A DNA stretch of 64,000 nt, from assembly GCA_963829545.1 (NCBI GenBank), contig CAWHIX010000006.1:65097-129096 (forward strand). Direction: 5' to 3'. The notes below the pieces were generated by a model. It saw nothing but the letters and a program-made list of their open reading frames with translations. It had not been told where the DNA came from and made no database searches. The position numbers and the translations under genes were made by a program. Each line of letters opens with the position of its first letter. The stretch's first letter is position 1. This stretch comes from an uncultured Actinomycetes bacterium (GTDB lineage: Bacteria; Actinomycetota; Thermoleophilia; RBG-16-64-13). Shown one piece after another: positions 856 through 64,000 of the stretch.

Positions 856-1125
856 GGGTCACTCCTTCCCGCGGCGGTTCGCCGCAGATGTGAGGAGCAC
901 TTTACCACGCTCCCAGTCGGGGAGACGGCTACACCTGATGGGGCTGGGGACGGGGTGCTCCAGACGCGGATTTCACGCGTTCAGGATTCTTTCAGGTGGG
1001 TGGTGGCATCATACCGTCATGGAGTCACACAGCATTGCTCAACCCCCCTCCTGAGCTGTGGCCCCAACCCTGTCCGGTGATGTCCGACCCTAACGGGAAG
1101 GACATCACCACGCCCACACGGCGGA

Positions 1126-1152
1126 GACGGCGTTTGCGGCGTTCGGATAATC
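1126..1152. promoter_or_regulatory. Perfect 12-bp inverted repeat GCGGCGTTCGGA-TAA-TCCGAACGCCGC in the divergent intergenic region between the LolA-like gene and the response regulator
   Basis: Read directly from sequence; palindromic operator-like site or hairpin in a shared divergent promoter region. Confidence 0.4.
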
Positions 1153-1286
1153 CGAACGCCGCGCCCGCCGTGTGATTCTCAGCCAAAGCCCCCAGCGCTT
1201 CTCGGCTTGCGGCCTTCATGCTGCCTGAACGCGCTCCCTACGAGGAACTTGTCCACACGCGTCCGGGGGGCGATACTACGGGCACC

Positions 1287-1955: not shown

Positions 1956-1986
1956 GGACGGATGAAGCCGCCATCAAGGACATAGC

Positions 1987-3351
1987 ATGAGGCGGTGGTT
2001 CTCGCGTATGGGGGTGCGCGACCGCCTTCTTCTGGCCGTCCTGGTGACGGTGGCCGCGGCGCTGGTCACCATGACCGTGGTTCTCAACTTCGTCCTCATC
2101 ACAAGCTTGAACGCCGATGTCGACGAGCGGCTGCAGACCATGGCCACCGACATGAGCCGCAACATCAGGATCTCCGGGGGACAGGTGAGCCTTCCCCGGC
2201 CCAGCGGTGACATCAAGGAGTTGGGGTCGCAGATCTGGGTGTTCGTCGGTGGCTATACGGTCACGGCTCCCGCGGTCGACCCGGCCATCGCGGAGGCGGC
2301 CCGCCAACTGGATGGGCAGGCGGCCCAGTTCGTCGATGTTCCCGAGCAAGAGGTGCGGCTGTACGGGATCCCCCTCTACTCCGGCGGGGAACGTATCGGC
2401 ACGATCGTCTCCGGTCTATCCACAGCCTCGTACCGGCAGAACAAGAACGTCACCCTGCTGGGTACCGTCACCTTCACGGCCGTGCTGCTCATCATCGTGG
2501 GCTTCGCGGCACGGTGGCTCCTCAACTCGGCCTTCCGGCCCATGGTAAGGATGACCGGCGAGGCGGAGGCTTGGACTACCGAAGACCTCGACCGGCGCTT
2601 CGATCTGGGGCCGCCTCACGACGAACTCACTCAGTTGGCCTACACACTCGACGGCATGCTCGACCGTTTGGCGACCAGTCTACGGCGGGAGCAGCGCTTC
2701 TCGGCCGAGGTCTCTCACCAGCTGCGTACGCCCGTGGCCAAGATCAAGGCAGAGGCAGAGCTGGCCCTGCGGCGCGAGCGGCCGGCGGATTACTACCAGG
2801 AGGCGCTTGGCTCGGTTCTCTACAGCGCTGACCAGATGGCGCGCACGGTCGAAGCCCTCCTGGCGGCGTCCCAGGAAGAGGGAAGCCTGGCTCGGGGACG
2901 GGCCGAGGTGTGGCAGGTGATCGCCGATGTAGTCAGCTCCATAGGGGTGCTCGCCGAAGAGAACGAGGTGGAGGTGCGCGTGAGACCTCCCGCGCGCGAT
3001 CTGCGCGTGGGTGTGGAACGCGACATCGCCGTGCAGATCCTGGCGCCCGTAGTCGAGAATGCCTGCCGCTTCGCTCGTTCGGACGTGCTCCTGTCCGCCA
3101 CTCGCAAGGGTACGGAGGTGCACTTCGTGGTGGAGGACGACGGTCCCGGAGTGGCCGAGGAAGAGAGCGAGAAGATCTTCGAGCCGGGGGTCCGTGGTTC
3201 GGCCTCCGGTAACGGCGGCAACCGCTCGCGAGGCGTCGGCCTGGGTCTCCCCCTGTCGCGGCGCCTGGCCAGAGCCGCCTCCGGCGACGTCGAACTGGCG
3301 ACGGGTCATCGCGGAGCCCGCTTCCTGGTGCGCCTACCTACGGGCAGGTAG
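1987..3351 (+). CDS. Sensor histidine kinase (TM, HAMP, HisKA H-box SHQLRTP, HATPase_c)
   Basis: 454-aa ORF immediately downstream of the RR. H-box EVSHQLRTPVAKIKAEAELAL; G-boxes DDGPGV...GVGLGL. Confidence 0.9.
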   Translation: MRRWFSRMGVRDRLLLAVLVTVAAALVTMTVVLNFVLITSLNADVDERLQTMATDMSRNIRISGGQVSLPRPSGDIKELGSQIWVFVGGYTVTAPAVDPAIAEAARQLDGQAAQFVDVPEQEVRLYGIPLYSGGERIGTIVSGLSTASYRQNKNVTLLGTVTFTAVLLIIVGFAARWLLNSAFRPMVRMTGEAEAWTTEDLDRRFDLGPPHDELTQLAYTLDGMLDRLATSLRREQRFSAEVSHQLRTPVAKIKAEAELALRRERPADYYQEALGSVLYSADQMARTVEALLAASQEEGSLARGRAEVWQVIADVVSSIGVLAEENEVEVRVRPPARDLRVGVERDIAVQILAPVVENACRFARSDVLLSATRKGTEVHFVVEDDGPGVAEEESEKIFEPGVRGSASGNGGNRSRGVGLGLPLSRRLARAASGDVELATGHRGARFLVRLPTGR

Positions 3352-3429
3352 CAGCGGGAGGCGCCGCCGGCACCGCCGCCGGCGCCTTGTAGCGGGGCGG
3401 GCCGTCAGACGCGTCTGGTCCGCAGGGGC

Positions 3430-6147
3430 TCAGCGGTACCAGAGGATGTGGTTGGCCTCCAGCGGCACCATCGCCTCGGGGTGAAAGGGCACGACCCTGG
3501 GCGTGAAGTCGTCGAGCGGCCGCGGGCTGACCAACGAAAGCACGTAGGTGCGCCGGTTTCCCGCGGCGCCTTTCGTAGGCTCCGTTGCCGTGACGGCGAC
3601 GAATGGATGGATCTCGGGCGGCGTGACCGGTCCGCCTGGCGGCAATGCCGCCTCGCCCTGGGGGCCGGCCAAGCCGGCAGTCGCCAAGGGTTCAGCGTAG
3701 AGCTCGACTCTTATCGCCTCCGGCGGCACGGAGCCCAGCTCCAGCTCCACAGACAGCGTGCACGCGCCGCCATCCGGGGGCGGTGCGGTGGTGACCTGGC
3801 AGTCGACGAAGCTGATCTCGCACCATCTCTCGTCGAGTAGGCCGCGCCAGTTCTCGATGTGGGCGGCGGTGGGCGACGCATCGTGCACCCGGGTATCCAG
3901 GCCGGCGACTGGGCCAGAGCCCGCGCCCACCCGCCTGCGGTACGCGGCTGTGGTGGGCAGGTAGTAGCGGTCGATGTACTGCTCGAGCATCCTGTTGGCC
4001 GAGAAGTAGGGGGCCAGTCGGGCCATGCTCTCCCTCACCCGCTCTATCCAGCGTCGCGGAAGCCCCTGCTCGTCTCGGTCGTAGAACTCGGGGATGAGCT
4101 CGTTCTCGATGAGATCGTAGAGTCGCTCGGCCTCCACCGCATCCCAGGCCGGATCGGAGTCGTGCTCCAGCATGTCGCCCAGAGCCCAGCCGACCTCGGG
4201 AGAGTAGGCCTCGGCCCACCAGCCGTCGAGCTCGGAGAGGTTCAGCCCCCCGTTCACGAGCACCTTCATGCCGCTGGTGCCGCTGGCTTCCCAGGGGCGC
4301 CGGGGCGTGTTGATCCAGACGTCGACGCCGTGCACCAAGTGCTCGGCGATGCCCATGTCGTAGTCGACGAGGAACAGGATGTGAGGACGGACCGCGCAGC
4401 GCTGGATGAACTCGGTCCACTGCCGGATCATGGCCTTGCCGGCCGTGTCGGCCGGGTGCGCCTTCCCGGCCAGGACGAGCTGCACCTGGCTGGTCGGGTG
4501 ACACAGGATGCGCTCCAGCCGGTCGGCATCGTGAAGAAGGAGGTTCACCCGCTTGTAGCTGGTGAAGCGGCGTGCGAAACCGAGCGTGAGGATGGCGGGG
4601 TCGCAGAGGCAGGTGATTTCCGTGCCCATGGTCTCCAAGCTCCCCGCAACCGGACCCTGCCGCCGCACGTGTTCGCGGGCGGCGTGGATGAGCTTCGTGC
4701 GGTTCTTCTCGCGGAAGTCCCACAGTTCCTCGTCACTGATGGAGCGGATCTTGTCCCCCAGTTCGGTCACTCCATCCAGCCACCGTTCCTTACCGCAGTA
4801 CTTCGTCCACAGAGCGTCGGCCTCGGGCGAATCCCAGGAGGGAACGTGCACCCCGTTGGTGACGTGCCCCACCGGTACCTCTCGCGCCGGCCAGCGGGGG
4901 AAGAGCCGCTGGAAGAGCGAACGGCTCACCTCGCCGTGCAGTCTGCTCACTCCATTGACGGCGCCGCTGCCTCGGATGGCGAGGTAGGCCATGTTGAACG
5001 CCTCGTCTTGTTCTGCCGCGGCCCTTCCGTCCTGCACCGTCGGCTCGTCACACTGCCCCAAGGCCAGGAGGCGGGACTGGTCGATGCCGAGACTGGCGGC
5101 GTAGCCTCCCAGGTATTCCCCCACCAGACGAGACGGGAAGCGGTCGAAACCCGCCTCGACCGGGGTGTGGGTGGTGAAGAGGTTGCCCGCTCGTGTGGCG
5201 GTCAAGGCTACGTCGAAGTCGACCCCGTGGTCTTCCATGAAACAGCGGGCCCTTTCGAGGACGGCAAAGGCCGCATGGCCCTCGTTGAGATGGCAGACCT
5301 CGGGTTCCAGACCCAGTTCGCGCAGGACCTGCCAGCCGCCTATCCCCAGGATCATCTCCTGCTGGAGCCGCATCTCCGGACCGCCTCCGTAGAGCTCGCC
5401 GGTGAGGCCTCGGTCGGCAGGATTGTTGACCGGGCTGTTGGAATCGAGCAGATAGAGGCGGACCCTGCCGGCCTTGACCTCCCACACACGGAGGCGGACC
5501 ACACGGCGGGGGAACTGGAGGGATATGGTGAGCCATTCACCATCGTTGTCGCGTAATGGCACGATGGGTAGCTGACCGGGATCGTTGAAGGGGAAGAGCT
5601 CAATCTGCTCCCCCGTGGGGCTGAGCGCCTGCCGGAAGTACCCCTGCTGCCATAGAAGACCGACGCCCACGAGGGGCGCTCCCAGATCGCTGGCGGCTTT
5701 GAGGAAGTCGCCGGCCAGGATGCCCAGGCCGCCGCTGTAGATGGGCAGAGCTTCGCTGAGCCCGAACTCCATGCTGAAGTAGGCGATGAGTCCCGGGACC
5801 GCGACATCTCCCGCCCCCTTGCTCTCGCTGCCAGCAGGGGCAGGGGAGGCTGGATAGGCCTTGGAGAACCAGGAGGGAGCTTCCAGGGTTCTCTGTCGCT
5901 CGTCCACGTGACGCTCGACGAGCCTCAGGAAATCCGGGTCGGCGGCGAACCCCTCCAGACGGGTCTGAGCGATGGTTTGCAGGATATGCCAAGGATTGTG
6001 GGTGCTCTCCCACAGCTCGGGGTCGAGCTGCTCCCACACTTCGTCCACCGCGTGGCTCCACGACCAGCGGAGATCGAGAGCCATGTCGACCAGTCCCTCG
6101 AGGCCCGAGGGAAGGACGGGGAGCGTATTGCGTGACTGGGCCCTCAA
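3430..6147 (-). CDS. glgP: Alpha-glucan (glycogen/maltodextrin) phosphorylase, GT35, bacterial alpha-glucan family
   Basis: 905-aa ORF. Motif EFGLSEALPIYSGGLGILAGDFLKAASDLGAPLVGVGLLWQQGYF is typical of the alpha-glucan phosphorylase family, with a PLP-domain length and a C-terminal extension. Confidence 0.9.
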   Translation of the reverse strand: MRAQSRNTLPVLPSGLEGLVDMALDLRWSWSHAVDEVWEQLDPELWESTHNPWHILQTIAQTRLEGFAADPDFLRLVERHVDERQRTLEAPSWFSKAYPASPAPAGSESKGAGDVAVPGLIAYFSMEFGLSEALPIYSGGLGILAGDFLKAASDLGAPLVGVGLLWQQGYFRQALSPTGEQIELFPFNDPGQLPIVPLRDNDGEWLTISLQFPRRVVRLRVWEVKAGRVRLYLLDSNSPVNNPADRGLTGELYGGGPEMRLQQEMILGIGGWQVLRELGLEPEVCHLNEGHAAFAVLERARCFMEDHGVDFDVALTATRAGNLFTTHTPVEAGFDRFPSRLVGEYLGGYAASLGIDQSRLLALGQCDEPTVQDGRAAAEQDEAFNMAYLAIRGSGAVNGVSRLHGEVSRSLFQRLFPRWPAREVPVGHVTNGVHVPSWDSPEADALWTKYCGKERWLDGVTELGDKIRSISDEELWDFREKNRTKLIHAAREHVRRQGPVAGSLETMGTEITCLCDPAILTLGFARRFTSYKRVNLLLHDADRLERILCHPTSQVQLVLAGKAHPADTAGKAMIRQWTEFIQRCAVRPHILFLVDYDMGIAEHLVHGVDVWINTPRRPWEASGTSGMKVLVNGGLNLSELDGWWAEAYSPEVGWALGDMLEHDSDPAWDAVEAERLYDLIENELIPEFYDRDEQGLPRRWIERVRESMARLAPYFSANRMLEQYIDRYYLPTTAAYRRRVGAGSGPVAGLDTRVHDASPTAAHIENWRGLLDERWCEISFVDCQVTTAPPPDGGACTLSVELELGSVPPEAIRVELYAEPLATAGLAGPQGEAALPPGGPVTPPEIHPFVAVTATEPTKGAAGNRRTYVLSLVSPRPLDDFTPRVVPFHPEAMVPLEANHILWYR

Positions 6148-32940: not shown

Positions 32941-33018
32941 AATCCCAGGAGAGAAGGAAAGGACCGTGCACCCGCCGTCGAAGACGAGACCTCCGAGCGC
33001 CCACCGGCAGCCAGCTCA

Positions 33019-33115
33019 GGCCAAGCTACCCCACGGCACATGAAAGAGTCCGCTTAGGGCTGCTACCTCCCGGTCCTGACCCGGTTCACAGAGTTCCATT
33101 GCGTAGGACCTGGCC
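33019..33115 (-). ncRNA. ffs: Signal recognition particle RNA, small (4.5S) type
   Basis: Minus-strand RNA ggccaggtcctacgcaatggaaCUCUGUGAACCGGGUCAGGACCGGGAGGUAGCAGCCCUAAGCGGacucuuucauGUGCCGUGGGGUAGCUUGGCC matches the E. coli 4.5S domain IV consensus (GGUCAGGUCCGGAAGGAAGCAGCC) and pairs its GGCC termini. The ends are approximate. Confidence 0.8.
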
Positions 33116-33315
33116 GTCAACACCACTTACCGGCGTCAGACCTCACAGGCCCGCTCCTAGGGCGGGGATTCCGTCCCGCTAAAGCGGATTGCGGGTACAG
33201 GGCACCGCTAGCTCCCCACCTAGCACGGTCGGCGAGGAGTATACAGCAGCTCGGCCCGTGCGGCGCCGCGGGGCAGCCGATGCGCCCAGGGCACCGGGTG
33301 GGCCTCCGGCTCGTG

Positions 33316-33900: not shown

Positions 33901-33966
33901 CGGCTCTGAAGGTGGTGATGGGGGACCGGAACTTCACAGTGACTCCTCGGGGAATATGGCGGAGTG

Positions 33967-34062
33967 GGAGGGATTCGAACCCTCGGGACGAGTTACCCCC
34001 GCCCACACGATTTCCAGTCGTGCTCCTTAAGCCAGCTCGGACACCACTCCGCAGACGCCGAC
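33967..34062 (-). tRNA. tRNA-Ser (anticodon GGA), class II with long variable arm, CCA encoded
   Basis: Minus strand GCGGAGUGGUGUCCGAGCUGGCUUAAGGAGCACGACUGGAAAUCGUGUGGGCGGGGGUAACUCGUCCCGAGGGUUCGAAUCCCUCCCACUCCGCCA. Cloverleaf folded by hand: 7-bp acceptor, anticodon loop CUGGAAA, T-loop UUCGAAU. Confidence 0.9.
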
Positions 34063-35767: not shown

Positions 35768-36666
35768 ATGTACGCTGACGCGATGCAGCAGATTCTGACC
35801 ATCATCACGCCCACGTTCTTCATAATCGCGCTCGGCTACCTGTTCGGGCGGGTCAGCCGGGCTTCGCCGGCTGTACTCATCGACGTGGTCATCTATCTGG
35901 CGACGCCCTGCCTGGTCCTTACCTCCTTGCTCGCCCAGCCCATCGTGGTCGGCGAGGCCGTGTGGCTGTGGGCCTCGTGTCTCCTGACCATCGCCGGGAC
36001 CGTATCTGCTCGCCCGACTGGTCTTCCTGCGCGGTCGCACCAAGCACTCCGGGCTCTACCTGCCCATCATGTTCGCCAACCTCATCAACCTGCCCCTGCC
36101 CATCGTCTATCTGGCCTTCGGCACGGAGGGTGTGGCCATGACGGTGCTCTTCTACATCCCGCAGGGCTTCCTCATCTACTCTCTGGGCGTATACCTGGCC
36201 GCGGGGCAGGAGGGGCTGAAGCCGGGCCTACGGGCCATGGCCCGCACGCCGCTGCTCTACACAGCGGTGCTGGGGGTGGCGCTGAATCTGGCCGGGGTGA
36301 CCCTGCCCACCCTGCTCTACGATTCGCTCAAGTTCATGGGCACGGCCAGCCATCCCGCTCATCCTCGTGGTCCTGGGGATGACCATCGGAAGTGTGAAGC
36401 TCACCCACGTCCCCCTCTCCCTGCTCGCCGGCGTCCTGCGCATGGGAGGAGGCTTCGCCTTCGGGATGCTGGCCGTGTGGGCCTTCGGGCTCACGGGAAT
36501 GGCCAGGAACATCGTGCTCTTCGAGTCGGCCATGCCGGCCGCCATCCTGACCGCGGTGCTGTGTACCAAGTACCGCAACGAGGCCGAACTGGTCTCCTCG
36601 GTCGTCCTCGTGACCACTCTGGCCAGCATAGTGGTCATCCCGGTGCTGCTATATTTCCTGCTGTGA
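35768..36666 (+). pseudogene. AEC-family (auxin efflux carrier / malate permease-like) transporter split over three frames
   Basis: ORF 35768..36382 (MQQILTIITPTFFIIALGYLFGR...), ORF 36069..37055 N-terminal part (MFANLINLPLPIVYLAFG...LYTAVLGVALNLAGV) and ORF 36367..36666 (TIGSVKLTHVPLSLLAGVLRMGGGFAFGMLAVWAFGL...VLLYFLL). Confidence 0.6.
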
Positions 36667-37330
36667 CCACCAGGACCCCTCCCTTCCTGCCCGACGGCAG
36701 CCCCTTCCGGCTGTCCGCGGTGCTCTTCGACTTCGACGGCACCCTGACAGAGCCCGGTGACTTCGATTTCGAGGCCATCCGTTCGGCTGTGGGATGCCCC
36801 TCCGGGGTGGGCCTGCTGGAATACCTCGAGGCTGTAGAAGATGCGGACGAGCGGAGCCGCAAGGAAGCCATCCTGGAGGAGGCCGAGGCGCTGGCGGCCG
36901 AGAAGGGTCGGCCCAACCAGGGAGCGGAAGAGCTCGTCGCGCTGCTGCGCTCTCAGCGCGTCCCCATGGCCGTCATCACGCCGGAACCGGTTGGCGTCGC
37001 TGGAGCGGGCGTTCGCCCGTGCTCAACGGCATCGGCGAAAGCGATTTCGCGCTGATAGTCACCCGCGATCTGGGCTTGGGTCCCAAACCGCTTCCGGACG
37101 GGGTTCTGCATATTGCGGCCGAGCTGGGTGTGGACCCGGGGACGATCCTCCTCATCGGGGATCACGCGTACGACATCGAGGCCGGGCGGCGGGCGGGCAC
37201 GCTCACCATGTACCTGCAGAACGATCCCGCCGCGCCCTTGCCCAAGGTGCCCGCCGACTTCACCGTAGCCGATCTGGGGGAAGCGGCTCGTATCATCCGC
37301 TACGGTCTTCCTTTGCCCACAGGCAAGCTG
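36663..37330 (+). CDS. HAD-superfamily hydrolase (motif I DFDGT), frame disrupted
   Basis: GTG at 36663 overlaps the AEC stop. VTTRTPPFLPDGSPFRLSAVLFDFDGTLTEP...; later ILLIGDHAYDIEAGRRAGTLT (HAD motifs III/IV) sits in a different frame (ORF 36794..37777). Confidence 0.5.
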
Positions 37331-38310
37331 CCGGCCGACCTGCTGGAGGAGAGCATCGGCACCATCGCCTCCGCCGACCCCGCCGTGCTGGTGGGCGCTC
37401 GTCTAGGAGAAGACGCGGCCGCCGTGGACGTGAGCGACGCCGAGATCCTGGTGCTGGCTTCCGACCCCATCACTCTGGCTGCGGACGACGTGGCCCGCTA
37501 CGCGGTGCTGGTCAACGCCAACGACATAGCCACGAGCGGAGCGCTTCCGCGCTGGTTCCTGACCACCCTGCTCTTCCCCCCGGCTCCACGGCGTCCGAGG
37601 TGGCGGCCTTGGTGCGCGATCTTCAGGAGAACTGCCGGCGGTGGGGCGTGTCGCTGTGCGGCGGGCACACCGAGGTCACCGACGCGGTCTCGCGACCCCT
37701 GGTGGCGGGGACCATGGCAGGGACGGCCGCGGGCCGCCGCCTACTCGATAAGCGCGACATGCGCGAGGGCGACATGATCCTCCTCACCAAGGGAGTGGCC
37801 GTGGAGGGTACGGGGCTCATAGCCCGGGAGTTCGGGCAGCGACTGAAGGCGGCGGGGATGAGTGCCGGCGAGCTAGATGCGTGTGCGGCCTTTCTGGAGC
37901 GGATGAGCATCCTCGACGAAGCGCGCGTCGCCCTGTCGTTCGAGGGGGTGACCGCCCTGCATGACGTCACTGAAGGCGGGCTGGCCATGGCAGTGACGGA
38001 GCTGGGCGCAGCCGGCGGACGCCGGCTGCGCGTCGACATGGACGGCATCCTCGTCTATCCGGAGACCCGTCGTCGTCTGCGCACTCCTTGGTCTCGATCC
38101 CCTGGGACTCATCGGCTCGGGCAGCCTCCTCATCACCTGTGCCGAGGACCAGGCGGGAGCGCTCGCGACGGTTATCGCGGCCGAGGGCATCGAGGTGGCC
38201 GTCATCGGAGAGGTGTTGGAAGAGGGTCGGGGTGTCGAGGCCTGGCAAGGCGGCGAGCGGCGCGACTGGCCCCGCTTCTCCAGGGACGAGGTCTCTCGCC
38301 TGACGGACTG
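37300..38310 (+). CDS. AIR-synthase-related (PurM-like; HypE/ThiL/SelD fold) protein, frame disrupted; may be fused to the HAD domain
   Basis: GKLPADLLEESIGTIASADPAVLVGARLGEDAAAVDVSDAEILVLASDPITL...VNANDIATSGALPRW, then in another frame CGGHTEVTDAVSRPLVAGTMAG...ALHDVTEGGLAMAVTELGAAGG and a C-terminal LITCAEDQAGALATVIAAEGIEVAVIGEVLEEGRG. Confidence 0.45.
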
Positions 38311-38336
38311 ATCCGGGCGGCGTCGTTAGTTCGCTC

Positions 38337-38864
38337 TTGCCAAACAGTACGGTGATGCCGTACAATATGGTCATGAGCAAAACCTGTGTAAATCTTGGAC
38401 ACGAGCCCTGTGCCTCCGTAGCGTTGGACGAGCGCTTCCGCGCCGCCTACTGGCGGTCGATGAAGCACCTCGAATCGCTCAGACTGCGCCAGTGGGAGGA
38501 GTCGAACCTCACTCTCCCCCAGTTGCGCGTACTCTTTCAGTTGCGACGGACCCCGGGCATCACCACAGGGTGCCTGGCCCGCAACCTGGGTGTCACCGTG
38601 TCGACCACCAGCGGGCTGGTCGCCAAGCTGGCAGAGCGCGGCCTGGTCGGCCGAGGCACTGTCGAAGGCGACCGACGCCAGATACCCCTGACTCTGACCG
38701 AGGCCGGCCAAGAACTGGCCGGCGAACTGGCTGCGATCTCCCGTCCTTTCCTGGACGAAGTCATCGACGAGTTGGGCGACGGACTGGCGGACGTGGTCTC
38801 GGCTCTCGAGAATCTGTACGCGGCGGCCGAGCGAGTCCGCCGACGCGAGGACGAGTGCTCATGA
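38337..38864 (+). CDS. MarR-family transcriptional regulator
   Basis: LTLPQLRVLFQLRRTPGITTGCLARNLGVTVSTTSGLVAKLAERGLVGRGTVEGDRRQIPLTLTEAG is a winged HTH. The stop overlaps the MFS start (ATGA). Confidence 0.8.
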   Translation: MPNSTVMPYNMVMSKTCVNLGHEPCASVALDERFRAAYWRSMKHLESLRLRQWEESNLTLPQLRVLFQLRRTPGITTGCLARNLGVTVSTTSGLVAKLAERGLVGRGTVEGDRRQIPLTLTEAGQELAGELAAISRPFLDEVIDELGDGLADVVSALENLYAAAERVRRREDECS

Positions 38865-53141: not shown

Positions 53142-55851
53142 ATGAAGACGACCAGCCGTATCCTGCGCGCCAAACTACGCCCTCCCCGCCTGGGGCCGGA
53201 TCGACTGGAGCGGCCGCGGCTCCTCGCCCAGTTGGACCGGGGGCTCTTAGGGCAGTGCATCCTGGTCTGCGCTCCAGCCGGCTACGGCAAGACCACGCTG
53301 CTAGCGCAGTGGATCGAGCGCACGGAGTTGCCGGCGGCGTGGCTCTCGCTCGACGACGGCGACGATGAGCCCGCCCTCTTTCTGGAGGAGTTGGTGGAGG
53401 CGTTGGGGTCGGCCGTCCCCGGCTGCTGTCGCGGCACTCGTTCGACCCTTGCCCGAGCAGCGCTGCCCCCGCTCGACGTGCTGAGCCGGCAGCTGGCGAA
53501 CGACATGGACGACCTCGACGAGTTTATCCTGGTGCTGGACGACTGCCAGAAGCTGCAAGACCCAGCGCACCCTCGAGATCCTTCGCCGCCTGCTCTTTCA
53601 GCCGCCGCGCTCCCTGCATCTGGTGCTGTCCTGCCGGGCGGATCCGCGCATACCCGTGGGCGCCCTACGGGGGCGAGGACTGCTGCTCGAGTTGCGGGCG
53701 GCCGATCTGCGCTTCAGCGAGCAGGAGGCGGTCCAGTACCTGGAGCAGACGCTGGGGCCGTCTCTGGACCGGAGCCATGTGACGTTGCTCCTGGAACGAA
53801 CGGAGGGATGGATCACTGGTCTGCATTTGGCCGTACTGTCGCTTCAGGGCCGTTCGGACGTGGAGCAAGGCATCCACGAGTTTGCGGGCAGCGATCGCTA
53901 CATCGCCGACTACCTCCTGGAGGAACTGCTGGCTCGCCTGGATCCCGCGATGCAAGAGTACCTTCAGGCCACCTCCATCCTGGAACGCCTCTATGCCCCG
54001 CTGTGTCGGGCGGTCACGGACGAGATGTCGCTGGAGGTCGTAGAGGGAGAGCCGGCGCTGGAATGGCTGGAGGAAGCCAACCTCTTCGTGGTCTCCCTGG
54101 ACGAGCAGCGCGAGTGGTTCCGCTACCACCACCTCTTCCGGGATCTTCTCCGTTACCGACTCCTGGCGAGCCGGCCCCCGGAACAGGTGGCCGCCCTGCA
54201 CGTCCGTGCGGGCGGGTGGCTCGGAGCCAACCAGCAGGTGGAGAGCGCAATCGACCACTTGCTCAAAGCCGGAAGGCCGGATCTAGCGGCGGACATGGTG
54301 GGCGAACACCGCCGAGAGGCCCTCGACCGGGAGCGCTGGCGGGCGCTCGAGCGGTGGGTGCACCGGCTGGGCGAGGATGTGGTCCACTCCCGTCCGTCTC
54401 TGGTGCTGATCTACGCCTGGCTGGCCCACCAAAGGATGGACTGGGCGGACATGCTTCGTCATTGCGACCGGGCCCAGGAACTGCTCGACTTTCCTGAGGA
54501 GTCCCTCCCCGACGAGGCGAGCCTGAGGGGAGAGATCGCCGCCATGCGTGCGGAGGTCAGTTACTGGCGGGGGGAGGGCGACGCCGCCCTGTCTCAGGCC
54601 CGCCAAGCGCTGGCCCTGCTTCCGGCCGACCACCGCTTGCCCCGGGCTATGGCCACCGTGATCGAGGGCGGCGCTCTGCAGCTGAGCGGGGACATCCCGG
54701 AAGCCTTCCAGGTCCTCCGCCAAGGCGCCTTCGGGGAGTACGGGAAGGGCATTCACCCTCGGACTACCATCGCACTAGCCCTTCTGGCCTTCATGGTCGG
54801 CGACGTGGCTCAAGCGGCTCAGGCGGCAAGACTGCTGCTCTCCCAGGCCCGCGAGCTGGGTGTGGGGGAGAGCGAGGGCTGGGCCCTCTACCTCCAAGGG
54901 CTGGCCGCCTACCTTGGCAACGATCTCTCCGCGGCCGAGGAGAAGTTCCAGGCCGTGGATCCTTACACCTCCCACGTGCTGCTGGGCAAGCAGTCCTGCT
55001 ACGGGCTGGCCTGGGTGCGGCTGGCTCAGGGGCGAGCACATGAGGCGCTCGAGGTGATGGACCGGTTCATGGTGGTGGCATCCGACCTCAACCTCCCGGT
55101 GGGAACCGAGGTCCAGCTGCTACGCGCCCGCCTGGCCAGACTGTCCGGCCGGCCCGTGGCCGCTGCGGGCTTGGCTCGGAGCCTCCTGCCGCCAGCGGGT
55201 GAGGGACCCCTGGGGTTGGCCGTCTGCTACGAGCTCAGCCCCCTCAGCGCCATCGCCCTCCTGCTGCTGGAGGGCGACGAGGATGACCTGCCGGCGTGTG
55301 CGGCGGGGCTGCGGCGTCTGCTGGCGGTCGCCGAGAGGAGTGGCAACGTCTTCCGCTCCGTCCAGTGCCTCATCCTGGAGGCTCTGCTGTTGGACTTGGA
55401 GGGCCGCAATGCCGAGGCGCTGGCGGCGCTGGGCAGGGCGGTGACGCTGGCCCAGCCCGGCCGTCTTATCCGCCTGTTTCCTGAGATGGGTGGCCGGGTA
55501 CGGCCGCTCCTTGTCGCCCTCCGCCTGCGAGGGCGCGTCGACGCCTTCGTGGACGAACTGATCACCTCGTTCACGGGGGAGGAATCCCCATCCGGCGCCA
55601 CTCCCGGCCCCCATCCGGTGATTTCCGGCCAGGAAGACTTGATCGACGTCCTGCTGACCAACCGCGAACTCGCTGTGCTCGAACTGCTGGAAGAACGGCT
55701 GAGCAACAAGGAGATCGCCCGGCGGTTGGTCATATCTCCGGCAACCGTCAAACGCCACACCCTCAGTATCTACCGCAAGCTCGGCGTTTCAAGCCGCCGC
55801 GACGCGGTGGCGAAGGCCAGGCACCTAAGGATGCTTTCGACCTCGCGGTAG
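53142..55851 (+). CDS. LAL/MalT-type large ATP-dependent LuxR-family transcriptional regulator (NTPase + TPR-like + C-terminal HTH); one frameshift near 53558-53570
   Basis: ORF 53142..54497 carries the N-terminus (ILRAKLRPPRLGPDRLERPRLL...CAPAGYGKTTLLAQW...FILVLDDCQKLQDPA). The frame then switches to ORF 53623..55851 (QRTLEILRRLLFQPPRSLHLVLSCRADPRIP...TEGWITGLHLAVLSL...LTNRELAVLELLEERLSNKEIARRLVISPATVKRHTLSIYRKLGV). Confidence 0.8.
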
Positions 55852-57342: not shown

Positions 57343-60250
57343 GTGAGCAAGGAAGATAAGAACGTTGTCATCGTGGCCGCTTACATGGGAACCGAGCCGG
57401 CCAAGAAGAACTTCGACCAACTCACGCAGTTGGTGAAGGATAAGAAGGTCAAGAGCGACGGTATCATTTTGGTCGAGAAGGACAAGGACGGCCAGTTGCT
57501 CGTCAGCGAGACCGGCGACCATCTCGGCCGCAAGGGGGCGGAATGGGGCGGCGGGGTCGGCCTGCTGGTCGGTCTCTTTGCGCCGCCACTGCTGGCTGCG
57601 ACCGCCGTGGGCGCTGCAGCCGGTGCGCTGGTCGGCAAGTTCGCCAAGCACAAGATCGTGGACGGTATCGAGGGCGGGTTGGGTCAGAATCTCAAGCCGG
57701 GCCAGGCCGCGATACTCACCATCGTCGAGGAAAAGGATCGCCTCGCCGCAGAACAGGCGTTGGTCGACTCACCGGCCAAGTCGGTGGCGGTCATGGAAGA
57801 AGGCGGCGCCGAGGGCCTCAAGGCGGCCCTGAACGAGGCTCGCGGGAAGTTCAATCCCGATCGCACCGTGCTGCCGATACCCGACAAGACCTTCGGCGGG
57901 GCGGTCGCCCGCACGATGGACCGGGCAGTCGCGGACTGGAGCTTCATCCCCGGTCCGAAGGCTCCCGAGAGCGCACCCAACGTCCTGATCGTGCTCGTCG
58001 ACGACGCCGGTTTCGGCGGACCGGAACCTTTCGGCGGCGAGATCCACACCCCCACGCTGGAGCGTATCGGTCAGATGGGCCTGACCTACAACGCCTTCCA
58101 CGTGACGGCTGTGTGCTCTCCTACCCGCGCGGCGCTGCTCACCGGGCGCAACCATCACCGCGTCGGCATGGGCGGCATCGCCGAGTTTCCGGGACCGTTC
58201 CCCGGCTACACGGGCGTGCGGCCGCGCAGTTGCACGGGGCTGCCCCGCATCTTGAAGGAGAACGGCTACGTCACCGCCGGCTTCGGCAAGTGGCACATGA
58301 CGCCTGGCCGCGAGATGGGACCGGCCGGCCCCTTGAGCACTGGCCGCAGGCCTGGGGCTTCGACCACTGGTGGGGCTTCCTTACCGGCGCGGCTGGCCAG
58401 TACGACCCGGTCATCACCCAGGACAACTCGGTGCTCGGCGTCCCCGAGGGCAAGGACGGGAAGCTCTACTACTTGCCCGACGACATCACCGACAAGACTA
58501 TCGAGTGGCTGCACGCCGTCCGCGCGCACGACGCTCACAAGCCGTGGTTCGTCTACTACTCCACGGGCGCGACCCATGCGCCGCATCATGTCGCCAAGGA
58601 GTGGGCCGACAAATACAAGGGCCAGTTCGACGACGGCTGGGACAAGTACCGCGAGCGGACCCTTGAGCGCCAGAAGAAGCTCGGCATCGTGCCGCCGGAT
58701 ACTGAGTTGGCAGCCCGACCCGACCCGTACCCGGCCTGGGATACCCTCAGCGACGCGGAAAAGAAACTGTACGCCCGCCAGATGGAAGTCTTCGCCGGCT
58801 TCTCAGAGAATACCGACTGGAACGTCGGCCGGCTGATCGACGAGATCGAGGAGATGGGCGAACTGGACAACACGCTCATCATGTATATCTGGGGTGACAA
58901 CGGCGCGAGCATGGAGGGTACGACCACCGGTTCCTTCAACGAGACGACCTTCTTCAATGGTGTCGTGCTGAACGCCGAGCAGCAATTAGCGCTGATCGAG
59001 AAATTCGGCGGCATCGAAGAACTCGGCGGCGAGCACACCGCCCCGCACTTTGCCGCGGCCTGGGCACATGCCAACAACACCCCCTTCCAATGGGGCAAGC
59101 AGATGGCCAGCCACCTTGGCGGCACGCGCGATCCGATGGTCGTCGCTTGGCCGAGCCGCATCAAGCCTGACAGCCAGGTCCGCAGCCAGTTCACCCACTG
59201 CATCGACATCGCCCCGACCATCCTGGAAGCCATCGGCGTTCCCGAACCGAAGGTGGTCGACGGCATCGAGCAGGAGCCCATGGACGGCACCAGCTTCTCC
59301 TACACGTTCGAAGATCCAGGTGCCGCGGCGCGCCACACCGTGCAGTACTTCGAGATGTACGGCAGTCGCGCCATCTATAAGGAAGGCTGGTGGGCCTGCT
59401 CGCGGCTCGACAAGCTGCCGTGGGACTTCTCGCCGGCGACGCTCAGTCGCTTCGCGCCGGGCAGCGGGTATGACCCCGACCAGGATACGTGGGAGCTCTA
59501 TTACCTCCCGGACGACTTCAGCCAGGCCAAGAACCTGGCGGTCGAAAAGCCTGAGAAGCTGGCCGAACTCAAGGAGCTCTTCTGGCAGGAGGCGGAGCGC
59601 AACCGGGCGCTGCCGCTACTCGGCGGAATGGCGGTGTTCTTCGGCATCCTGCCGCCGATGCCGACGGTCACGCGCCACAGCTTCGCCGGCGATGTTCAGA
59701 ATGTGTCGACCACGGTGATCCCCCGCATCTACGGGCGATCCTACGCGATCGAAGCCGAACTCGAAGTCCCGGAAGGCGGGGCCGAGGGCGTGCTGTGCGC
59801 CTTCGCCGACTTCATCGGCGGGTTCTCGCTATGGGTTGACGAGAAGGGCCACCTCATCCACACCTACCAGTTCCTCGGCGTGGACACCTACAAGCAGGTC
59901 TCGACCGAGCCGATCCCGACCGGCGATGTGACCGTGAAGATGCTGTTCGAGATCGACGAGCCCAAACCGGGGGCCGGTGGAAAAGTGACCCTGTGGGCCA
60001 ACGACAAGCAGATCGGCGAAGGCACGATGCCCCACTCCGTGGCGATGCTCTTCACGACCTATGCCGGTATGGACATGGGCCGCGACAACGGTGGCGTGGT
60101 CGACCTGGATACGAGGACAAGGCGCCGTACGCCTTCACCGGCAAGCTGAAGAAGGTCGTCTTCGATCTCAAACCCGCTCACCTGGAAGCGGAGCAGGGTC
60201 TGCATCAGCACGCGATGGTCAACGCGGTGGCCGCAGGTGCTGCCGGCTGA
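57343..60250 (+). CDS. DUF1269 membrane domain fused in-frame to a Cys-type arylsulfatase (CSPTR formylglycine motif); two single-nt frameshifts (about 58320 and 60095)
   Basis: ORF 57343..58836 carries DUF1269-like KNVVIVAAYMGTEPAKKNFDQL...GGGVGLLVGLFAPPLLAATAVGAAAGALVGKF...LKPGQAAILTIVEE, then APNVLIVLVDDAGFGGPEPFGG...AVCSPTRAALLTGRNHHRVGMG...GKWH. ORF 57543..60149 continues the sulfatase in another frame (PQAWGFDHWWGF...). The C-terminus YEDKAPYAFTGKLKKVVFDLKP is in ORF 59993..60250. Confidence 0.8.
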
Positions 60251-60620: not shown

Positions 60621-62370
60621 ATGAGCGAGCCGAGTAGAACAAGCACCGGGGAAAAGGGGCGCTCCGGCGGCATTGCCCGCTACGTCCCCATCCTTTCGTG
60701 GTTGCCCAGCGTACGACCGGAAGTGGCTCGGCGCCGATGCCATCGCGGGGCTGACCGCTTGGGGCCTTCTGGCCCCGGAGGCCATGGCCTACGCGGGCAT
60801 CGCCGGTCTTCCACCGGAGACCGGGCTGTACGCCCTGGTTGCGTCCCTCTTGGTCTACGCCCTGCTCGGCAGCTCGCGCCACCTGTCGGTCCAACCGACT
60901 TCGGCGACCGCCGCTCTTATCGCCTCGACTGTGGTCGCGCTGGGTGTCGCTGCAAGCGACATGGCGACCTACCAGTCGTACGCGATCATGCTGGTGTTGC
61001 TCGTGGGGGTAGGCTTCGTCATCGCCGGCTTTGCGCGCCTGGGCTTCATCACGCAGTTCCTCTCCAAGCCGGTGATGGATGGGTTCGTCACGGCCCTGGC
61101 TTTCTTCATCGCCATCGGACAACTCAACAAGCTTTTCGGCGTCGAGAAGGGAGAGGGCAACAGCTTCCAGAAGCTCTTCAGCGTCATCGAAAGCCTTCCG
61201 GAGGCCAATTGGACCACGTTCGCGGTCGGGGCTTCGGCGCTGGCGCTGCTCTTCCTTCTTCCCCGCCTGAGCAGGCGCATCCCGGCCGGACTCGTCGTGC
61301 TCTTCCTCTACATCCTTGTCAGCTACCTGCTCGATCTGAGCGGCCGTTTCGGCGTGGAGGTGGTCGGCGAACTGCCGCAGGGGCTTCCCTCCCTCACGTT
61401 TCCTGATGTGCCGGCGTCCGAGATACTGAAGATGGTGCTCCCGGCCATCGGCATCGTCCTTGTCGCCTACAGCGAAGCCCTCGGGGTGGCCCGGGAGTTC
61501 GCGGAGAAGCACGGCTACGAGGTCGACCCCAACCAGGAACTGCGTGCCCACGGGATAGCCAACCTGGCGAGTGGCTTCTTCGGTGGGCTGCTGGTTGCGG
61601 GAAGCATGTCCGGGTCGGCGGTGAAAGAGGGGGCGGGAGCCCGTACCCAGGTCTCCAGCCTGGTGGCCTGGGTGGCCGTCATCATCACCGTTCTCGTCCT
61701 CACTCCCCTCTTCAAGACCTTGCCGGAGGCTGTGCTCGCCGCACTGATCATCCACGCCGTGTGGCATATCATCGTGGCCCGCAAGCTCAAACAGGTGCGA
61801 CTCGTATCGCGTCCGGAGTTCCTCCTCGGAGTCCTCACCTTCTTCGCCTTGCTCCTCACCGACGTTCTCCAGGGCATGATGGTAGGCCTCATCGCCTCCC
61901 TCATCTGGTTCATCTACAAGGCCACCAAGCCCCATCTGGCATCTCTGGGTCGCGTTGTTGGCGCCAAGGATGTCTTCTCCGATATCACCCGTCATCCCGA
62001 AGACACGCCGGTGCCGGGGCTGCTGATCCTCCGCCTCAACGCCCCGCTGTTCTACGCCAATGCACAGAGCGTGCGCGACCAAGTCAAGACCCTGGTGGAC
62101 CACACCGATCCCTCGCCACGCGCGGTGCTCTTCGACGCGGTGGCCCAGGACGACCTGGACGTGACCAGCGCGGACACCCTGAGGAAGCTGTTCGCAGAAC
62201 TGCAGCAGCGCGGGATCGACATCTACCTGGCTGAAGTCCACGCACCGGTGCGTGAGTTCGCACGCCGTGTCGGTCTCTCGGATATGATTGCCGAGGACCA
62301 CATATTCCCCACCGTCCCCTTAGCCGTCGCGGCATTCGAGTCCCAACGAAAGGAGTCAGACTATGTTTGA
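60621..62370 (+). CDS. Second SulP-family transporter with STAS domain; N-terminal about 30 codons in a different frame (frameshift near 60710)
   Basis: N-terminus MSEPSRTSTGEKGRSGGIARYVPILSWLPSV (frame of ORF 60540..61406), then the body in ORF 60673..62370 (YDRKWLGADAIAGLTAWGLLAPEAMAYAGIAGLPPETGLYA...). Confidence 0.8.
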
Positions 62371-62786
62371 CCTTCCCCTGGAGTACGCCCTGATCGAATT
62401 CGAGGACGCCAAGTTATCGGGCAAGATCATCCCCGAACTCTTGCATCTGGCGGAGCGCGGCATCGTGCGTTTCGTAGACATCGCCTTCATCCAGAAGGAG
62501 GAGGACGGCACCACGCGCACCCTCGAACTCAACGATCTCGATCCCGAGGTCTACGAGCTGTTCGTCCCCGTGGGCGAGCACGTCTCCAACCTCTTCACCA
62601 ACGACGACCTGCAGATCGCCGCGAGCAGACTCCCCGCGAAGTCGGCGGCAGTACTCTTCCTGTGGGAGAATCTGTGGGTCGCCGACCTCGCAAGGCGTCA
62701 TGGACGCCGGCGGTCGTCTTGTAGAACGGGCGCAGATCGCCCCCGAGATAGTCGAAGAATTCAAGGAGGCTCTCGCCGCGGAATAG
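62363..62786 (+). CDS. Small soluble protein resembling the cytosolic domain of DUF1269 (DUF6325-like); translationally coupled to SulP (8-nt overlap); frameshift near 62700
   Basis: RBS aaggag + ATG 62363; MFDLPLEYALIEFEDAKLSGKIIPELLHLAERGIVRFVDIAFIQKEEDGT...AVLFLWENLWVADLAR. The plausible C-terminus VMDAGGRLVERAQIAPEIVEEFKEALAAE* is in the +1 frame (stop 62784-62786). Confidence 0.5.
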
Positions 62787-62844
62787 CAGGCGACTCCGAA
62801 AGCTAGCGTGAACCGATCCAGACTTTTCCATAGGAGGCAGAATA

Positions 62845-63047
62845 ATGGGACCACGTAGAGGACCGAATCCCCCCGGACCTGTCGGCGGCGTCGGCCGCGG
62901 ACCTAACCCTCCGGGACCAGTGGGCGGTGTCGGCCGTGGACCAATCCCCCCGGCCCTGTCGGTGGCGTCGGCCGCGGACCAAACCCCCCCGGCCCCGTGG
63001 GCGGCGTCGGTGTGGGACGCCGCAATGGCGTGGGGCTGCTGCGCTAG
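62845..63047 (+). CDS. Small Gly/Pro-rich tandem-repeat peptide: M-GPRR-(GPNPPGPVGGVGR)x3-GPNPPGPVGGVGV-GRRNGVGLLR (one 1-nt deletion in repeat 3 as sequenced)
   Basis: RBS aggaggcagaata + ATG 62845. Four 39-nt repeats; repeats 1 and 2 differ at 8 positions, all synonymous. ORF track entry 62845..63222 reads through in the shifted frame. Confidence 0.5.
62860..63014 (+). repeat. 4 x 39-nt tandem direct repeat (third copy 38 nt)
   Basis: ggaccgaatccccccggacctgtcggcggcgtcggccgc / ggacctaaccctccgggaccagtgggcggtgtcggccgt / ggaccaatccccccggccctgtcggtggcgtcggccgc / ggaccaaacccccccggccccgtgggcggcgtcggtgtg. Confidence 0.85.
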
Positions 63048-63118
63048 GTCGTCCGCTCCGCTTGCGGACGCCAAGCGCGGGCACCGGCTGATCGCGCCGG
63101 GCTCGAGGAGAATAACCA

Positions 63119-63160
63119 GGGGCGCGCCCCGCTATCGGGGCGCGCCCCTGTCTGTTTCGG
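63119..63160. terminator. Bidirectional terminator: two copies of self-complementary GGGGCGCGCCCC separated by GCTATC, U-rich on both sides
   Basis: aGGGGCGCGCCCCgctatcGGGGCGCGCCCCtgtctgtttcgg lies between the convergent repeat-peptide and TetR genes. The TetR stop codon (cta complement, 63132-63134) sits in the loop. Confidence 0.55.
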
Positions 63161-63791
63161 GGTCCGGTCTTGGCCTCCGACGGCGTGAGCTCTCCCCGCC
63201 TTTCAACTCGGCGGGGTGGTAGCGGACACCGTCCCAGATCATCTTGTCGACTTCCAGCAGCGCCTCTCGGGCAGTGAGACCGGCAGCGGCCAGGAGGTCT
63301 TCGTCGCGAACGGCGAAGGCGATGTATCTGAACATGCCGACAGCGAAACGAACGTTGATCGGCCTGATCTCGCCGGCCTTCGCGGCCTCGTCGAGCAGCG
63401 CCGAGAAGCGCTCGATGAACCGATCGGACACGATCTCTCGATAGGCCCTCCGGGTCGCTTCGAAATACTCGACGTCGCGGCGAAAAGTGGAAGTCAACTC
63501 GCGCAGGCCGTCGGCTCCTTCGCGGTAGTAGGTCCGAGCCCGAGCGGACGGCGTGGAACATGCACGCGCCTGGGCATCGATATTGGCGAGCAGGCGCTCT
63601 CCCCACCGCTCAAGAGCAAGGATCACGAGGTCGGTCTTGCTTGGTGCAAGCTTGTAGAGAGTGGCGACGGAGCAGCGGAGCTCCCGTGCGAGGTCGGACA
63701 TCTTCAGCTCGGAGAAGCCCCGCGCTGCGACGATGCGCATCACACCGTCGAGCAACTCCTCGGCGCGGCCGTTGGCAAGTCTCTTGGGCAC
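63132..63791 (-). CDS. TetR/AcrR-family transcriptional regulator
   Basis: GTG at 63789-63791 (complement) after RBS gggaggga; N-terminal HTH RAEELLDGVMRIVAARGFSELKMSDLARELRCSVATLYKLAPSKTDLV. The C-terminal tail RRRRPRPDPETDRGAPR is unusual, so the gene may be frameshifted or read into the terminator. Confidence 0.75.
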   Translation of the reverse strand: MPKRLANGRAEELLDGVMRIVAARGFSELKMSDLARELRCSVATLYKLAPSKTDLVILALERWGERLLANIDAQARACSTPSARARTYYREGADGLRELTSTFRRDVEYFEATRRAYREIVSDRFIERFSALLDEAAKAGEIRPINVRFAVGMFRYIAFAVRDEDLLAAAGLTAREALLEVDKMIWDGVRYHPAELKGGESSRRRRPRPDPETDRGAPR

Positions 63792-64000
63792 ACCACGTCC
63801 CTCCCGTGAACCGTCCGGCGCGGCTCCGATCGTCGTAGACAAGGACAGACCCGCTATTGTACGGCGCATAGAATGATACTAGAATGGGTACCAAGCTACT
63901 GAATATATTACTCTAACTCGTCCGCCGCCGCACGACCTTTGGCGGCAGAGTTGTGGCCACAAGTCCCCTGCAGGAGAAAGCATGAAGGCACTGGCGGCAT

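Follow-up and report, generated by a model that had tools for sequence, protein, structure and literature searches.

Genes for DUF6325 proteins are followed in a number of bacteria by a gene for a small protein with a SHOCT domain (PF09851). These SHOCT partners, among them WP_332880822.1 of Streptomyces, WP_025433710.1 of Rhodococcus opacus and P0194 of Kovacikia minuta, are the closest known thing to the gene described here. The SHOCT domain is itself uncharacterised: a role in oligomerisation has been tested and was not supported (PMC3581485), and one prediction has proteins anchored to the membrane on its inner face (PMC11237479). A literature search returned nothing on DUF6325 or on the NPPGPVGG repeat motif. 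We have analysed a stretch of 64,000 nucleotides (nt), hereafter the window, from contig CAWHIX010000006.1 of an uncultured Actinomycetes bacterium of the Thermoleophilia, and within it a small open reading frame (ORF) of four tandem Gly/Pro repeats directly behind a DUF6325 gene. Our analysis suggests that what is new here is a disordered small protein that partners DUF6325 in a conserved module of two genes.

By the features of its sequence, the small ORF is a genuine and probably efficiently translated gene. As sequenced, its frame breaks in the third repeat unit, and the open frame continues to 63222, giving 125 amino acids in the ORF list. With one A added it becomes a 204-nt ORF of the form MGPRR(GPNPPGPVGGVGR)x3 GPNPPGPVGGVGV GRRNGVGLLR*, which stops at 63045-63047, as an initial annotation made from the letters alone had proposed. 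Direct reading bears out that annotation on four tandem units, of 39, 39, 38 and 39 nt, behind a strong ribosome-binding site; we count 6 nt between AGGAGG and the ATG at 62845, where the earlier count was 7 nt ('cagaata'). Tandem Repeats Finder reports a period of 39 and 3.9 copies, and a degenerate pattern for the unit matches four times in the window and not once in 100 shuffles. All listed relatives likewise start with ATG, 6-8 nt behind an AGGAGG- or GGAG-type Shine-Dalgarno site, and their first codons are A-rich despite GC-rich genomes. The combination of ATG, Shine-Dalgarno site and A-rich first codons is a signature of efficient initiation. The opening codons of the window ORF and of the family are rare Arg and Ile codons (AGA AGA, AGA ATA, CGT AGA). 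The encoded protein is strongly basic: each unit contributes one Arg, and acidic residues are absent altogether.

The way in which the repeat units diverge indicates strong purifying selection on the peptide of each unit, with synonymous sites near saturation. Recomputation confirms 8 differences among the 39 nt of units 1 and 2, every one of them at a third codon position, so that GPNPPGPVGGVGR is read from both. Across the four window units, 11 of 11 variable columns are third positions (chance about (1/3)^11 = 6e-6), the sole other change being R to V in the last codon of unit 4. Among 58 GTDB genomes, 113 exact GPNPPGPVGGVGR units are written by 96 DNA sequences with a third-position entropy of up to 1.96 bits (the Arg codon is CGN in 85 and AGR in 11), a count that is partly circular because the search pattern had fixed most first and second positions. 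The tail RRNGxGLLR lay outside that pattern and provides a non-circular control: 88 distinct DNA versions encode essentially seven peptide variants, and the mean entropy is 0.42, 0.21 and 1.08 at codon positions 1, 2 and 3, respectively. The same peptide recurs in the homologues from the protein search, which used no DNA pattern. Of the wobble sites, 43% differ between units within one gene and 58% between units of different loci, and a within-gene divergence of 43% argues that the copies are old and that selection, not recent slippage or conversion, has kept the peptide. The earlier view that selection acts on a peptide, and not that a DNA repeat is drifting, thus stands on the wobble-only divergence of the window units, on the 96 DNA versions of 113 units and on the entropy of the tail.

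On the evidence of both protein and DNA searches, the small ORF belongs to a real and widespread family that is unnamed and unannotated. The restored sequence, searched against 5.8 billion proteins, gave 62 matches, the closest at 95-100% identity (P0004 is 100% identical across the aligned part). Typical database members are 37-54 amino acids long (for example MVGRIGPNPPGPVGGVGRGPNPPGPVGGVGRGPNPPGPVGGVGVGRRNGVGLLR); all are called 'hypothetical', and none has a Pfam domain. A degenerate DNA pattern encoding NPPGP[VIL]GG[VIL]G, run on GTDB species genomes and on metagenome contigs, found 77 loci in the former and at least 120 in the latter, and complete ORFs of the family architecture are present at 58 GTDB and 75 metagenome loci. 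These ORFs encode 39-89 amino acids: a head M-x(0-3)-R-R, two to six units (mode five) of G(P)NPPGPVGGVG[RA], which are 13 amino acids long or 12 where the first Pro is absent, and a tail (G/V/R)RRNG[VPR]GL[LM]R before the stop. The window ORF has the family head (MGPRR) and tail (GRRNGVGLLR*), the strong Shine-Dalgarno site with ATG, DUF6325 directly upstream and, in place of the minimum of two, four tandem units G(P)NPPGP[VI]GG[VI]G[RA], which share a single frame only after the one-base restoration. Repeat number varies among the relatives while the peptide is conserved, as the initial annotation had anticipated, and in nearly all of them the repeat lies in one frame inside an ORF. That annotation could not assign a family. 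The protein has no match in Pfam, NCBIfam, PADLOC, PDB or Rfam, but relatives do exist, in the form of a widespread unnamed family.

Going by record titles, most carriers are Chloroflexota (45 of 61 GTDB loci, from Anaerolineae, Caldilineae, Ardenticatenaceae and others), a phylum abundant in soils, sediments and wastewater; 12 of the 61 loci are labelled Actinomycetota, among them the nearest relatives of the window. Several metagenome-assembled genomes (MAGs) hold two or three paralogues. Small proteins are badly under-annotated, and this family, which spans well over a hundred environmental genomes and contigs, has neither name, domain match nor literature, despite very strong selection at the level of the peptide. 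Some members alternate 13- and 12-residue units (GPNPPGPVGGVGA-GNPPGPVGGVGR) in a 75-nt super-repeat (L012, L015, L031, L035, L036, L043, L049, L060-L062, L065, L068, L078 and L082), unlike the window, which carries 13-residue units only. One locus, L047, is aberrant and ends in ...GVGV* without the RRNGxGLLR tail.

The constant neighbour of the family is DUF6325. The small ORF is essentially always co-oriented and directly behind a DUF6325 gene, as it was on every contig first inspected. We scored the upstream partner with a hidden Markov model built from the upstream proteins, for ORFs that end within 200 nt on the same strand. By this measure a DUF6325-like ORF lies directly upstream in 55 of 58 GTDB loci; the three exceptions are one locus without upstream sequence, L078, where the two genes overlap at ATGA, and L060, which has a different ORF upstream. 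In metagenome loci with enough upstream sequence the figure is 48 of 48, with gaps of -4 to 143 nt. The DUF6325 stop and the small-ORF start share an ATGA in L055, L058, L078 and four metagenome loci (the -4 gaps), which is the classic arrangement for translational coupling; overlap and adjacency together indicate that the pair is made from one mRNA, sometimes by coupled translation. In the window the DUF6325 stop (62784-62786) precedes the small-ORF ATG by 58 nt. The initial annotation had placed the ORF between a SulP/DUF pair and a convergent TetR regulator; Pfam confirms all three, but SulP and TetR vary among relatives, and DUF6325 alone is constant. That the gene is real and conserved, and that it is paired with DUF6325, we consider very probable. 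The strict pairing gives a first handle on DUF6325 and on the RRGPGLLR module of some SHOCT proteins. We also looked for a natural fusion of the two proteins and discarded both candidates: P0065 is fused in the wrong frame, and L078 is the ATGA overlap just described.

The slot behind DUF6325 is filled differently elsewhere. A tblastn search with DUF6325 against annotated plasmids and chromids yielded ten records. In three annotated actinomycete records the adjacent gene is a 'SHOCT domain-containing protein', and in three unannotated ones (the cyanobacterium Kovacikia, Kitasatospora and Embleya) the next ORF is of the same kind; a Nonomuraea record has a different gene. A SHOCT-type successor of DUF6325 is thus found in Streptomyces, Rhodococcus, Embleya, Kitasatospora and Kovacikia. 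The partners begin with MPGLLRGVARTAVVAGTATAVS..., MNRRGPGLLGAAARTAVVAGTA... and MVRRRSGPGLLRSVARTAVV..., and a search with the cyanobacterial one returned 134 relatives. Nearly all of the 120 relatives listed have a basic N-terminus of variable length, rich in Arg, Gly and Pro, which leads into RRGPGLL[RG]T-ARTAVVAGTATA; behind ARTAVVAGTATA come a Gln/Ala/Pro-rich linker and the SHOCT domain.

The repeat protein and the SHOCT partner occupy the same slot, as the first gene past DUF6325 on the same strand (with gaps of 20-75 nt for SHOCT), and both are small, at 39-89 and about 80-135 amino acids, respectively. In both, a basic stretch rich in Arg, Gly and Pro runs into a short motif, RRNG[PV]GLLR in the repeat protein and RRGPGLL[RG] in the SHOCT partner, and both have a long low-complexity segment, which is an exact Gly/Pro tandem repeat in the former and the Gln/Ala/Pro-rich linker in the latter. 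The small protein looks like the 'MxRR' head and the 'RRxGPGLLR' of a SHOCT-partner N-terminus with a Gly/Pro repeat set between them. From the equivalence of position and the short motif, we hypothesise that the two are related. The window protein nonetheless has neither the SHOCT domain nor the ARTAVVAGTATA segment; it has only the RRxGxGLLR part and ends right after GLLR. Since it lacks the SHOCT domain and the ARTAVV segment, we do not file it as a SHOCT partner. No ARTAVV-type or SHOCT ORF was present in the window or at any family locus examined.

These comparisons lead us to propose a mechanism. The small protein would be co-synthesised with DUF6325, as synteny and coupling suggest, and may act as its partner subunit, with the Chloroflexota-type protein replacing the small SHOCT protein of Actinomycetota and cyanobacteria. 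The invariant GLLR tail, given its conservation and its analogue in the SHOCT partners, could be a short linear motif for contact with DUF6325 itself or with a target that both proteins share. The polyproline-II- or elastin-like Gly/Pro repeats would form a cationic spacer in extended form, or a multivalent arm, of a length that differs between lineages. As each unit holds a PPG triplet, synthesis should depend on elongation factor P (EF-P); PPG pauses ribosomes that lack EF-P in a context-dependent manner (PMC4140641). AlphaFold2, run with the family alignment, gives the small protein a predicted local distance difference test score (pLDDT) of 55, a predicted template modelling score of 0.12 and no secondary structure, which fits one option of the initial annotation, an intrinsically disordered small protein. 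Its statement that there is no signal peptide extends to the family: no member has a hydrophobic segment, a Sec signal or a Tat h-region. DUF6325 is predicted to form an alpha/beta domain (pLDDT 82). A docking motif with a spacer is a concrete hypothesis that arises from the pairing with DUF6325; taken alone, we hold it tentatively and think it somewhat more apt to be wrong than right. A larger version is a long shot: DUF6325 and a GLLR-motif peptide might form a two-part regulatory module for ion transporters (SulP, CLC and K+ channels) that extends from Actinomycetota and cyanobacteria, with SHOCT partners, to Chloroflexota, with Gly/Pro-repeat partners, the latter acting as polycationic, multivalent tethers, with EF-P gating their synthesis at two to six PPG stalls. 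If true, this two-part module would be previously unrecognised, and it would tie transporter regulation to translational status.

We give the explanation as a whole (a real gene, its pairing with DUF6325, a docking-motif mechanism and an artefactual frame break) a probability of about 0.6. Several results weigh against it. When the two family profiles were compared by hhalign, the match picked was exactly that of RNGVGLLR with RRGPGLL, but it covers only 8 columns (P = 0.005, probability 6.8%), and among 1.84 billion representatives a profile search turned up no intermediate that has both the repeats and a SHOCT domain. The motif is C-terminal in the small protein and N-terminal in the SHOCT partners. 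At L060 the upstream ORF is not DUF6325, and DUF6325 itself has no significant fold or sequence match in the PDB. As to the frame break, the nearest GTDB relative that could serve as an independent assembly is at most 83% identical, and both genes of the pair are broken within 260 nt of each other.

The last two points would suit a recent pseudogene, in which the one-base deletion is real and the DUF6325/small-ORF pair is decaying: the search for an independent assembly yielded none to contradict such a deletion. Exact-protein look-ups found no second copy, and an exact DNA pattern with the base made optional found none in the metagenome contigs. The wider pattern of breaks argues otherwise. 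By tblastn, the window DUF6325 is read in frame +2 from 62363 to 62689 and in frame +3 from 62691 to 62783, and at least five further genes of the window are frame-broken as well if DUF6325 is counted with the sulfatase, the MalT-like regulator, the HAD hydrolase and the AIR-synthase-like gene (AIRS); the split genes were recognised from overlapping ORFs with consecutive Pfam coordinates. That several unrelated genes are broken alike points to a general indel problem, and the assembly of the window appears to be indel-rich. When aligned with four intact relatives, the window copy has a single 1-nt gap and, that base aside, only differences of synonymous type, in agreement with the recomputed unit and with the initial annotation that repeat 3 had lost one A, and the Shine-Dalgarno site, the ATG, the tail and the stop are intact.

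Broken copies among relatives are unevenly distributed. In JGI-type metagenome contigs, unit spacings are divisible by three in 261 of 262 cases and one of 91 loci is broken (L201), whereas the broken or truncated GTDB copies (L029, L034, L039, L054 and L085; L001 is similar) all come from MAGs of the 'MFD ... contig_N' kind. The difference, 5 of 40 against 1 of 91, is significant by Fisher's test (p = 0.01), with the long-read status of these MFD assemblies taken from their naming only. In L034 and L054 the frame shift lies in or behind the last unit. We judge it likely that the deletion in unit 3 is an assembly error and not biology, and a decaying gene is accordingly an unlikely account. 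About ten database homologues exit and rejoin the repeat frame, and since so many were frame-broken a programmed frameshift was suspected at first. We reject this idea, and with it phase variation at C-runs: breaks are rare, lie at different sites in different relatives with no conserved recoding site, and are concentrated in long-read-looking assemblies, while orthologues with 261 of 262 spacings in frame do not change frame at a common site. A frame break in a repeat of an apparent long-read assembly can thus hide a real gene, and wobble-only divergence can rescue it.

Other functions can be proposed for a real, intact gene. The small protein could be a stand-alone disordered protein (for instance a protectant against stress, an elastin-like peptide that phase-separates, or an RG-rich polycation with affinity for nucleic acid or membrane) linked to DUF6325 by co-expression only. 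The complete disorder predicted by AlphaFold2, the absence of acidic residues with one Arg in every unit, and the likeness of PVGGVG to elastin and flagelliform silk would all suit such a protein, and the NPPGPxGG core does recur without DUF6325 in unrelated repeat proteins, including a linker before the PDZ domain of P0186. We nevertheless think this unlikely, given that near-obligate adjacency and start/stop overlap with DUF6325 are tighter than is usual for co-regulation, that an invariant non-repeat tail points to a specific contact, and that in other phyla the equivalent slot holds a protein with a similar motif. A secreted peptide or a ribosomally synthesised and post-translationally modified peptide (RiPP) is hardly credible. 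The initial annotation had listed a precursor peptide among its options, and the gene is small and repetitive with an N-terminal Arg-Arg, but the family lacks a signal or leader, its units contain no Cys, Ser or Thr to modify, and its neighbours are DUF6325, a sulfatase and ion transporters in place of any conserved modifying enzyme, protease or exporter.

Alternatively, the ORF may act through its translation, as a polyproline attenuator or regulatory upstream ORF in which transit through two to six PPG stalls, dependent on EF-P, Pro-tRNA and Gly-tRNA, sets the expression of a channel or transporter gene 90-220 nt downstream via transcription-translation coupling or Rho. Every unit contains the PPG that pauses ribosomes without EF-P (PMC4140641), one report describes coupling of transcription and translation as maintained by EF-P (PMC5021804), and the strong Shine-Dalgarno site, ATG and A-rich start would ensure high initiation. 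Many relatives, moreover, have a same-strand CLC, Ion_trans, membrane-protein or rhodanese gene 50-220 nt past the stop. Yet a stall sensor would not need the whole peptide, and V-G-G-V-G-R and the tail RRNGxGLLR are kept in full. The ORF trails a gene, to which it is sometimes translationally coupled, instead of heading an operon. In the window, L048 and L057 no same-strand gene follows at all; the window ORF ends its operon before a terminator and a convergent TetR gene and has no Rfam match. Nor was a conserved terminator or antiterminator seen downstream; in a crude scan, 9 of 59 loci had hairpin-plus-T sites. We regard attenuation as distinctly unlikely, and a partner protein of DUF6325 as the better account of the conserved tail and adjacency.

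Two further candidates were also set aside. Antisense ORFs at 62595-63074 and 62803-63606 (minus strand) have no Pfam match, and in the frame of the former the differences that are silent on the plus strand alter residues (L/F/I). For an RNA element, Rfam gave only sub-threshold noise at the terminator hairpin.

Repeats of similar composition occur in quite different proteins. Elastin-like and flagelliform-silk repeats (VPGXG, GPGGX) resemble the PVGGVG and GPVGG of the small protein, and both are built of short Gly/Pro/Val units in tandem, for which no regular secondary structure is predicted. The unit here, however, is 13 or 12 residues long with an invariant Asn and Arg, and it is part of a cytoplasmic bacterial protein of 40-90 amino acids with a specific head and tail, not of a long structural polymer. 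A collagen-like repeat, (G-X-Y)n, was rejected, as the Gly residues of GPNPPGPVGGVGR stand at positions 1, 6, 9, 10 and 12 and not at every third. With EF-P-dependent polyproline proteins and stall sensors, which have PPG and PPP motifs (PMC4140641), the family shares its PPG triplets, two to six in fewer than 90 codons; in those already known, one such motif adjusts how much of a folded protein is made, whereas here the motif lies within a conserved repeat. Secreted repeat proteins (P0030-P0033, P0183, P0188, P0190 and P0193) share the core NPPGP-x-GG-x-G, but differ in their signal peptides, their acidic or His-rich flanks and their 'GTNWENPPGP' double unit, and they lack the RRNGxGLLR tail; they too are uncharacterised and without a Pfam family. 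Taken over P0030-P0033 and P0183-P0193, this core occurs in unrelated, uncharacterised repeat proteins. The secreted ones carry 'D[ND]NPPGPxGGPGTNWENPPGPxGGPGASPDR' double units, others include a His-rich 'YYHHNPPGPYGGPGHG' protein and a 508-residue Asn-rich protein, and in one the repeats join an N-terminal anchor to a PDZ domain.

Table 1. Positions of the small ORF, its parts, adjoining genes and split genes within the window
Feature	Position	Strand	Basis or remark
Shine-Dalgarno site AGGAGG of the small ORF	62833..62838	+	Direct reading; AGGAGG- or GGAG-type site in listed relatives
Small ORF, 67 amino acids once one A is restored	62845..63047	+	Homologues at 95-100% identity; intact orthologues
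Head M-G-P-R-R (family consensus M-x(0-3)-R-R)	62845..62859	+	Head variants across relatives
Repeat unit 1, GPNPPGPVGGVGR, 39 nt	62860..62898	+	Tandem Repeats Finder; recomputed
Repeat unit 2, GPNPPGPVGGVGR, 39 nt	62899..62937	+	Differs from unit 1 at 8 synonymous sites
Repeat unit 3, 38 nt	62938..62975	+	One A missing in the A-run 62943-62944 (CCAAAT reads CCAAT)
Repeat unit 4, GPNPPGPVGGVGV, 39 nt	62976..63014	+	Recomputed repeat
Tail GRRNGVGLLR and stop (candidate docking motif)	63015..63047	+	Conserved in relatives; likened to the RRGPGLLR N-terminus of SHOCT partners
DUF6325 gene, upstream partner	62363..62786	+	Pfam; frame-shifted at about 62690
SulP sulfate permease with STAS domain	60673..62370	+	Pfam; end overlaps the DUF6325 start
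Hairpin, 15-bp stem (14 G-C pairs), 4-nt loop	63117..63150		Terminator-like on both strands; 70 nt past the stop codon
TetR-family regulator, convergent	63132..63869	-	Pfam; lineage-specific, outside the conserved pair
HAD hydrolase, split	36069-37055 / 36794-37777		Consecutive Pfam coordinates
AIR-synthase-like gene, split	36794-37777 / 36841-38355		Consecutive Pfam coordinates
MalT-like AAA+TPR+GerE regulator, split	53142-54497 / 53623-55851		Consecutive Pfam coordinates
Sulfatase, split	57343-58836 / 57543-60149		Consecutive Pfam coordinates; probably another break near 60000

Genes for membrane ion transporters surround the pair, whose link to ion transport or stress is one of neighbourhood only. 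Same-strand neighbours include a sulfatase (directly upstream, 20 loci), CLC (18), a pair of Ion_trans channel genes (17), SulP (10 + 4), rhodaneses and, at 14 loci, a multi-pass membrane protein that matches no family and in which about six hydrophobic segments can be made out by eye. A recurring same-strand cluster (L005 at 1-5567, L019, L025, L031, L086 and others) opens with sulfatase, DUF6325 and the small repeat ORF and continues with the multi-pass membrane protein (L005, 4299-5036), two Ion_trans genes, CLC and SulP/STAS; in a variant, two rhodanese genes adjoin the pair. Upstream of the small ORF many loci have a loosely conserved TCACCATCTTYTGAGAGGAG stretch. A hairpin between Shine-Dalgarno and anti-Shine-Dalgarno sequences was considered for the conserved 'THHLLRGGNIM' stretch and dropped, its pairing being weak and inconsistent by eye.

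On the downstream side of the window ORF, the bidirectional terminator of the initial annotation is recovered as the hairpin in Table 1, which scores on both strands. Among relatives, a TetR gene lies near the pair only in L027, L048, L057, L073 and L074. In the window, the listed TetR stop (63132-63134) falls inside the terminator stem, and the last 15 or so residues (…RPRPDPETDRGAPR) resemble non-coding read-through; another indel may affect the true 3' end of this gene.

Further upstream, a DUF1269-like protein (57343-58020), with a beta-alpha-beta half, a Gly-zipper GGGVGLLVGLFAPPLLAATAVGAAAGALVG and a second half, runs in frame and without a stop into the N-terminus of the sulfatase, which reflects either a fusion or a stop codon lost to an indel. 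DUF1269 is also near a sulfatase in L017, L023, L026 and L077. The N-terminal half of DUF6325 (62363-62786) and that of DUF1269 (57538-57768) align weakly but co-linearly (hhalign P = 0.009), and by eye the DUF1269 Gly-zipper (GVGLLVG...ATAVGAAAG) resembles GPGLLR-ARTAVVAGTATA of the SHOCT partner. The idea that DUF6325 and its partner are a split DUF1269 was rejected, as hhalign did not detect a match between the Gly-zipper and the partner motif. Elsewhere, the window carries a large Alu-type bacterial signal recognition particle RNA at 32964-33228 on the minus strand (RF01854, 207 bits). An RNA of this type sits more readily with Chloroflexota than with Actinomycetota and may be of use in placing the organism. 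A tRNA-Ser(GGA) lies at 33957-34050, also on the minus strand.

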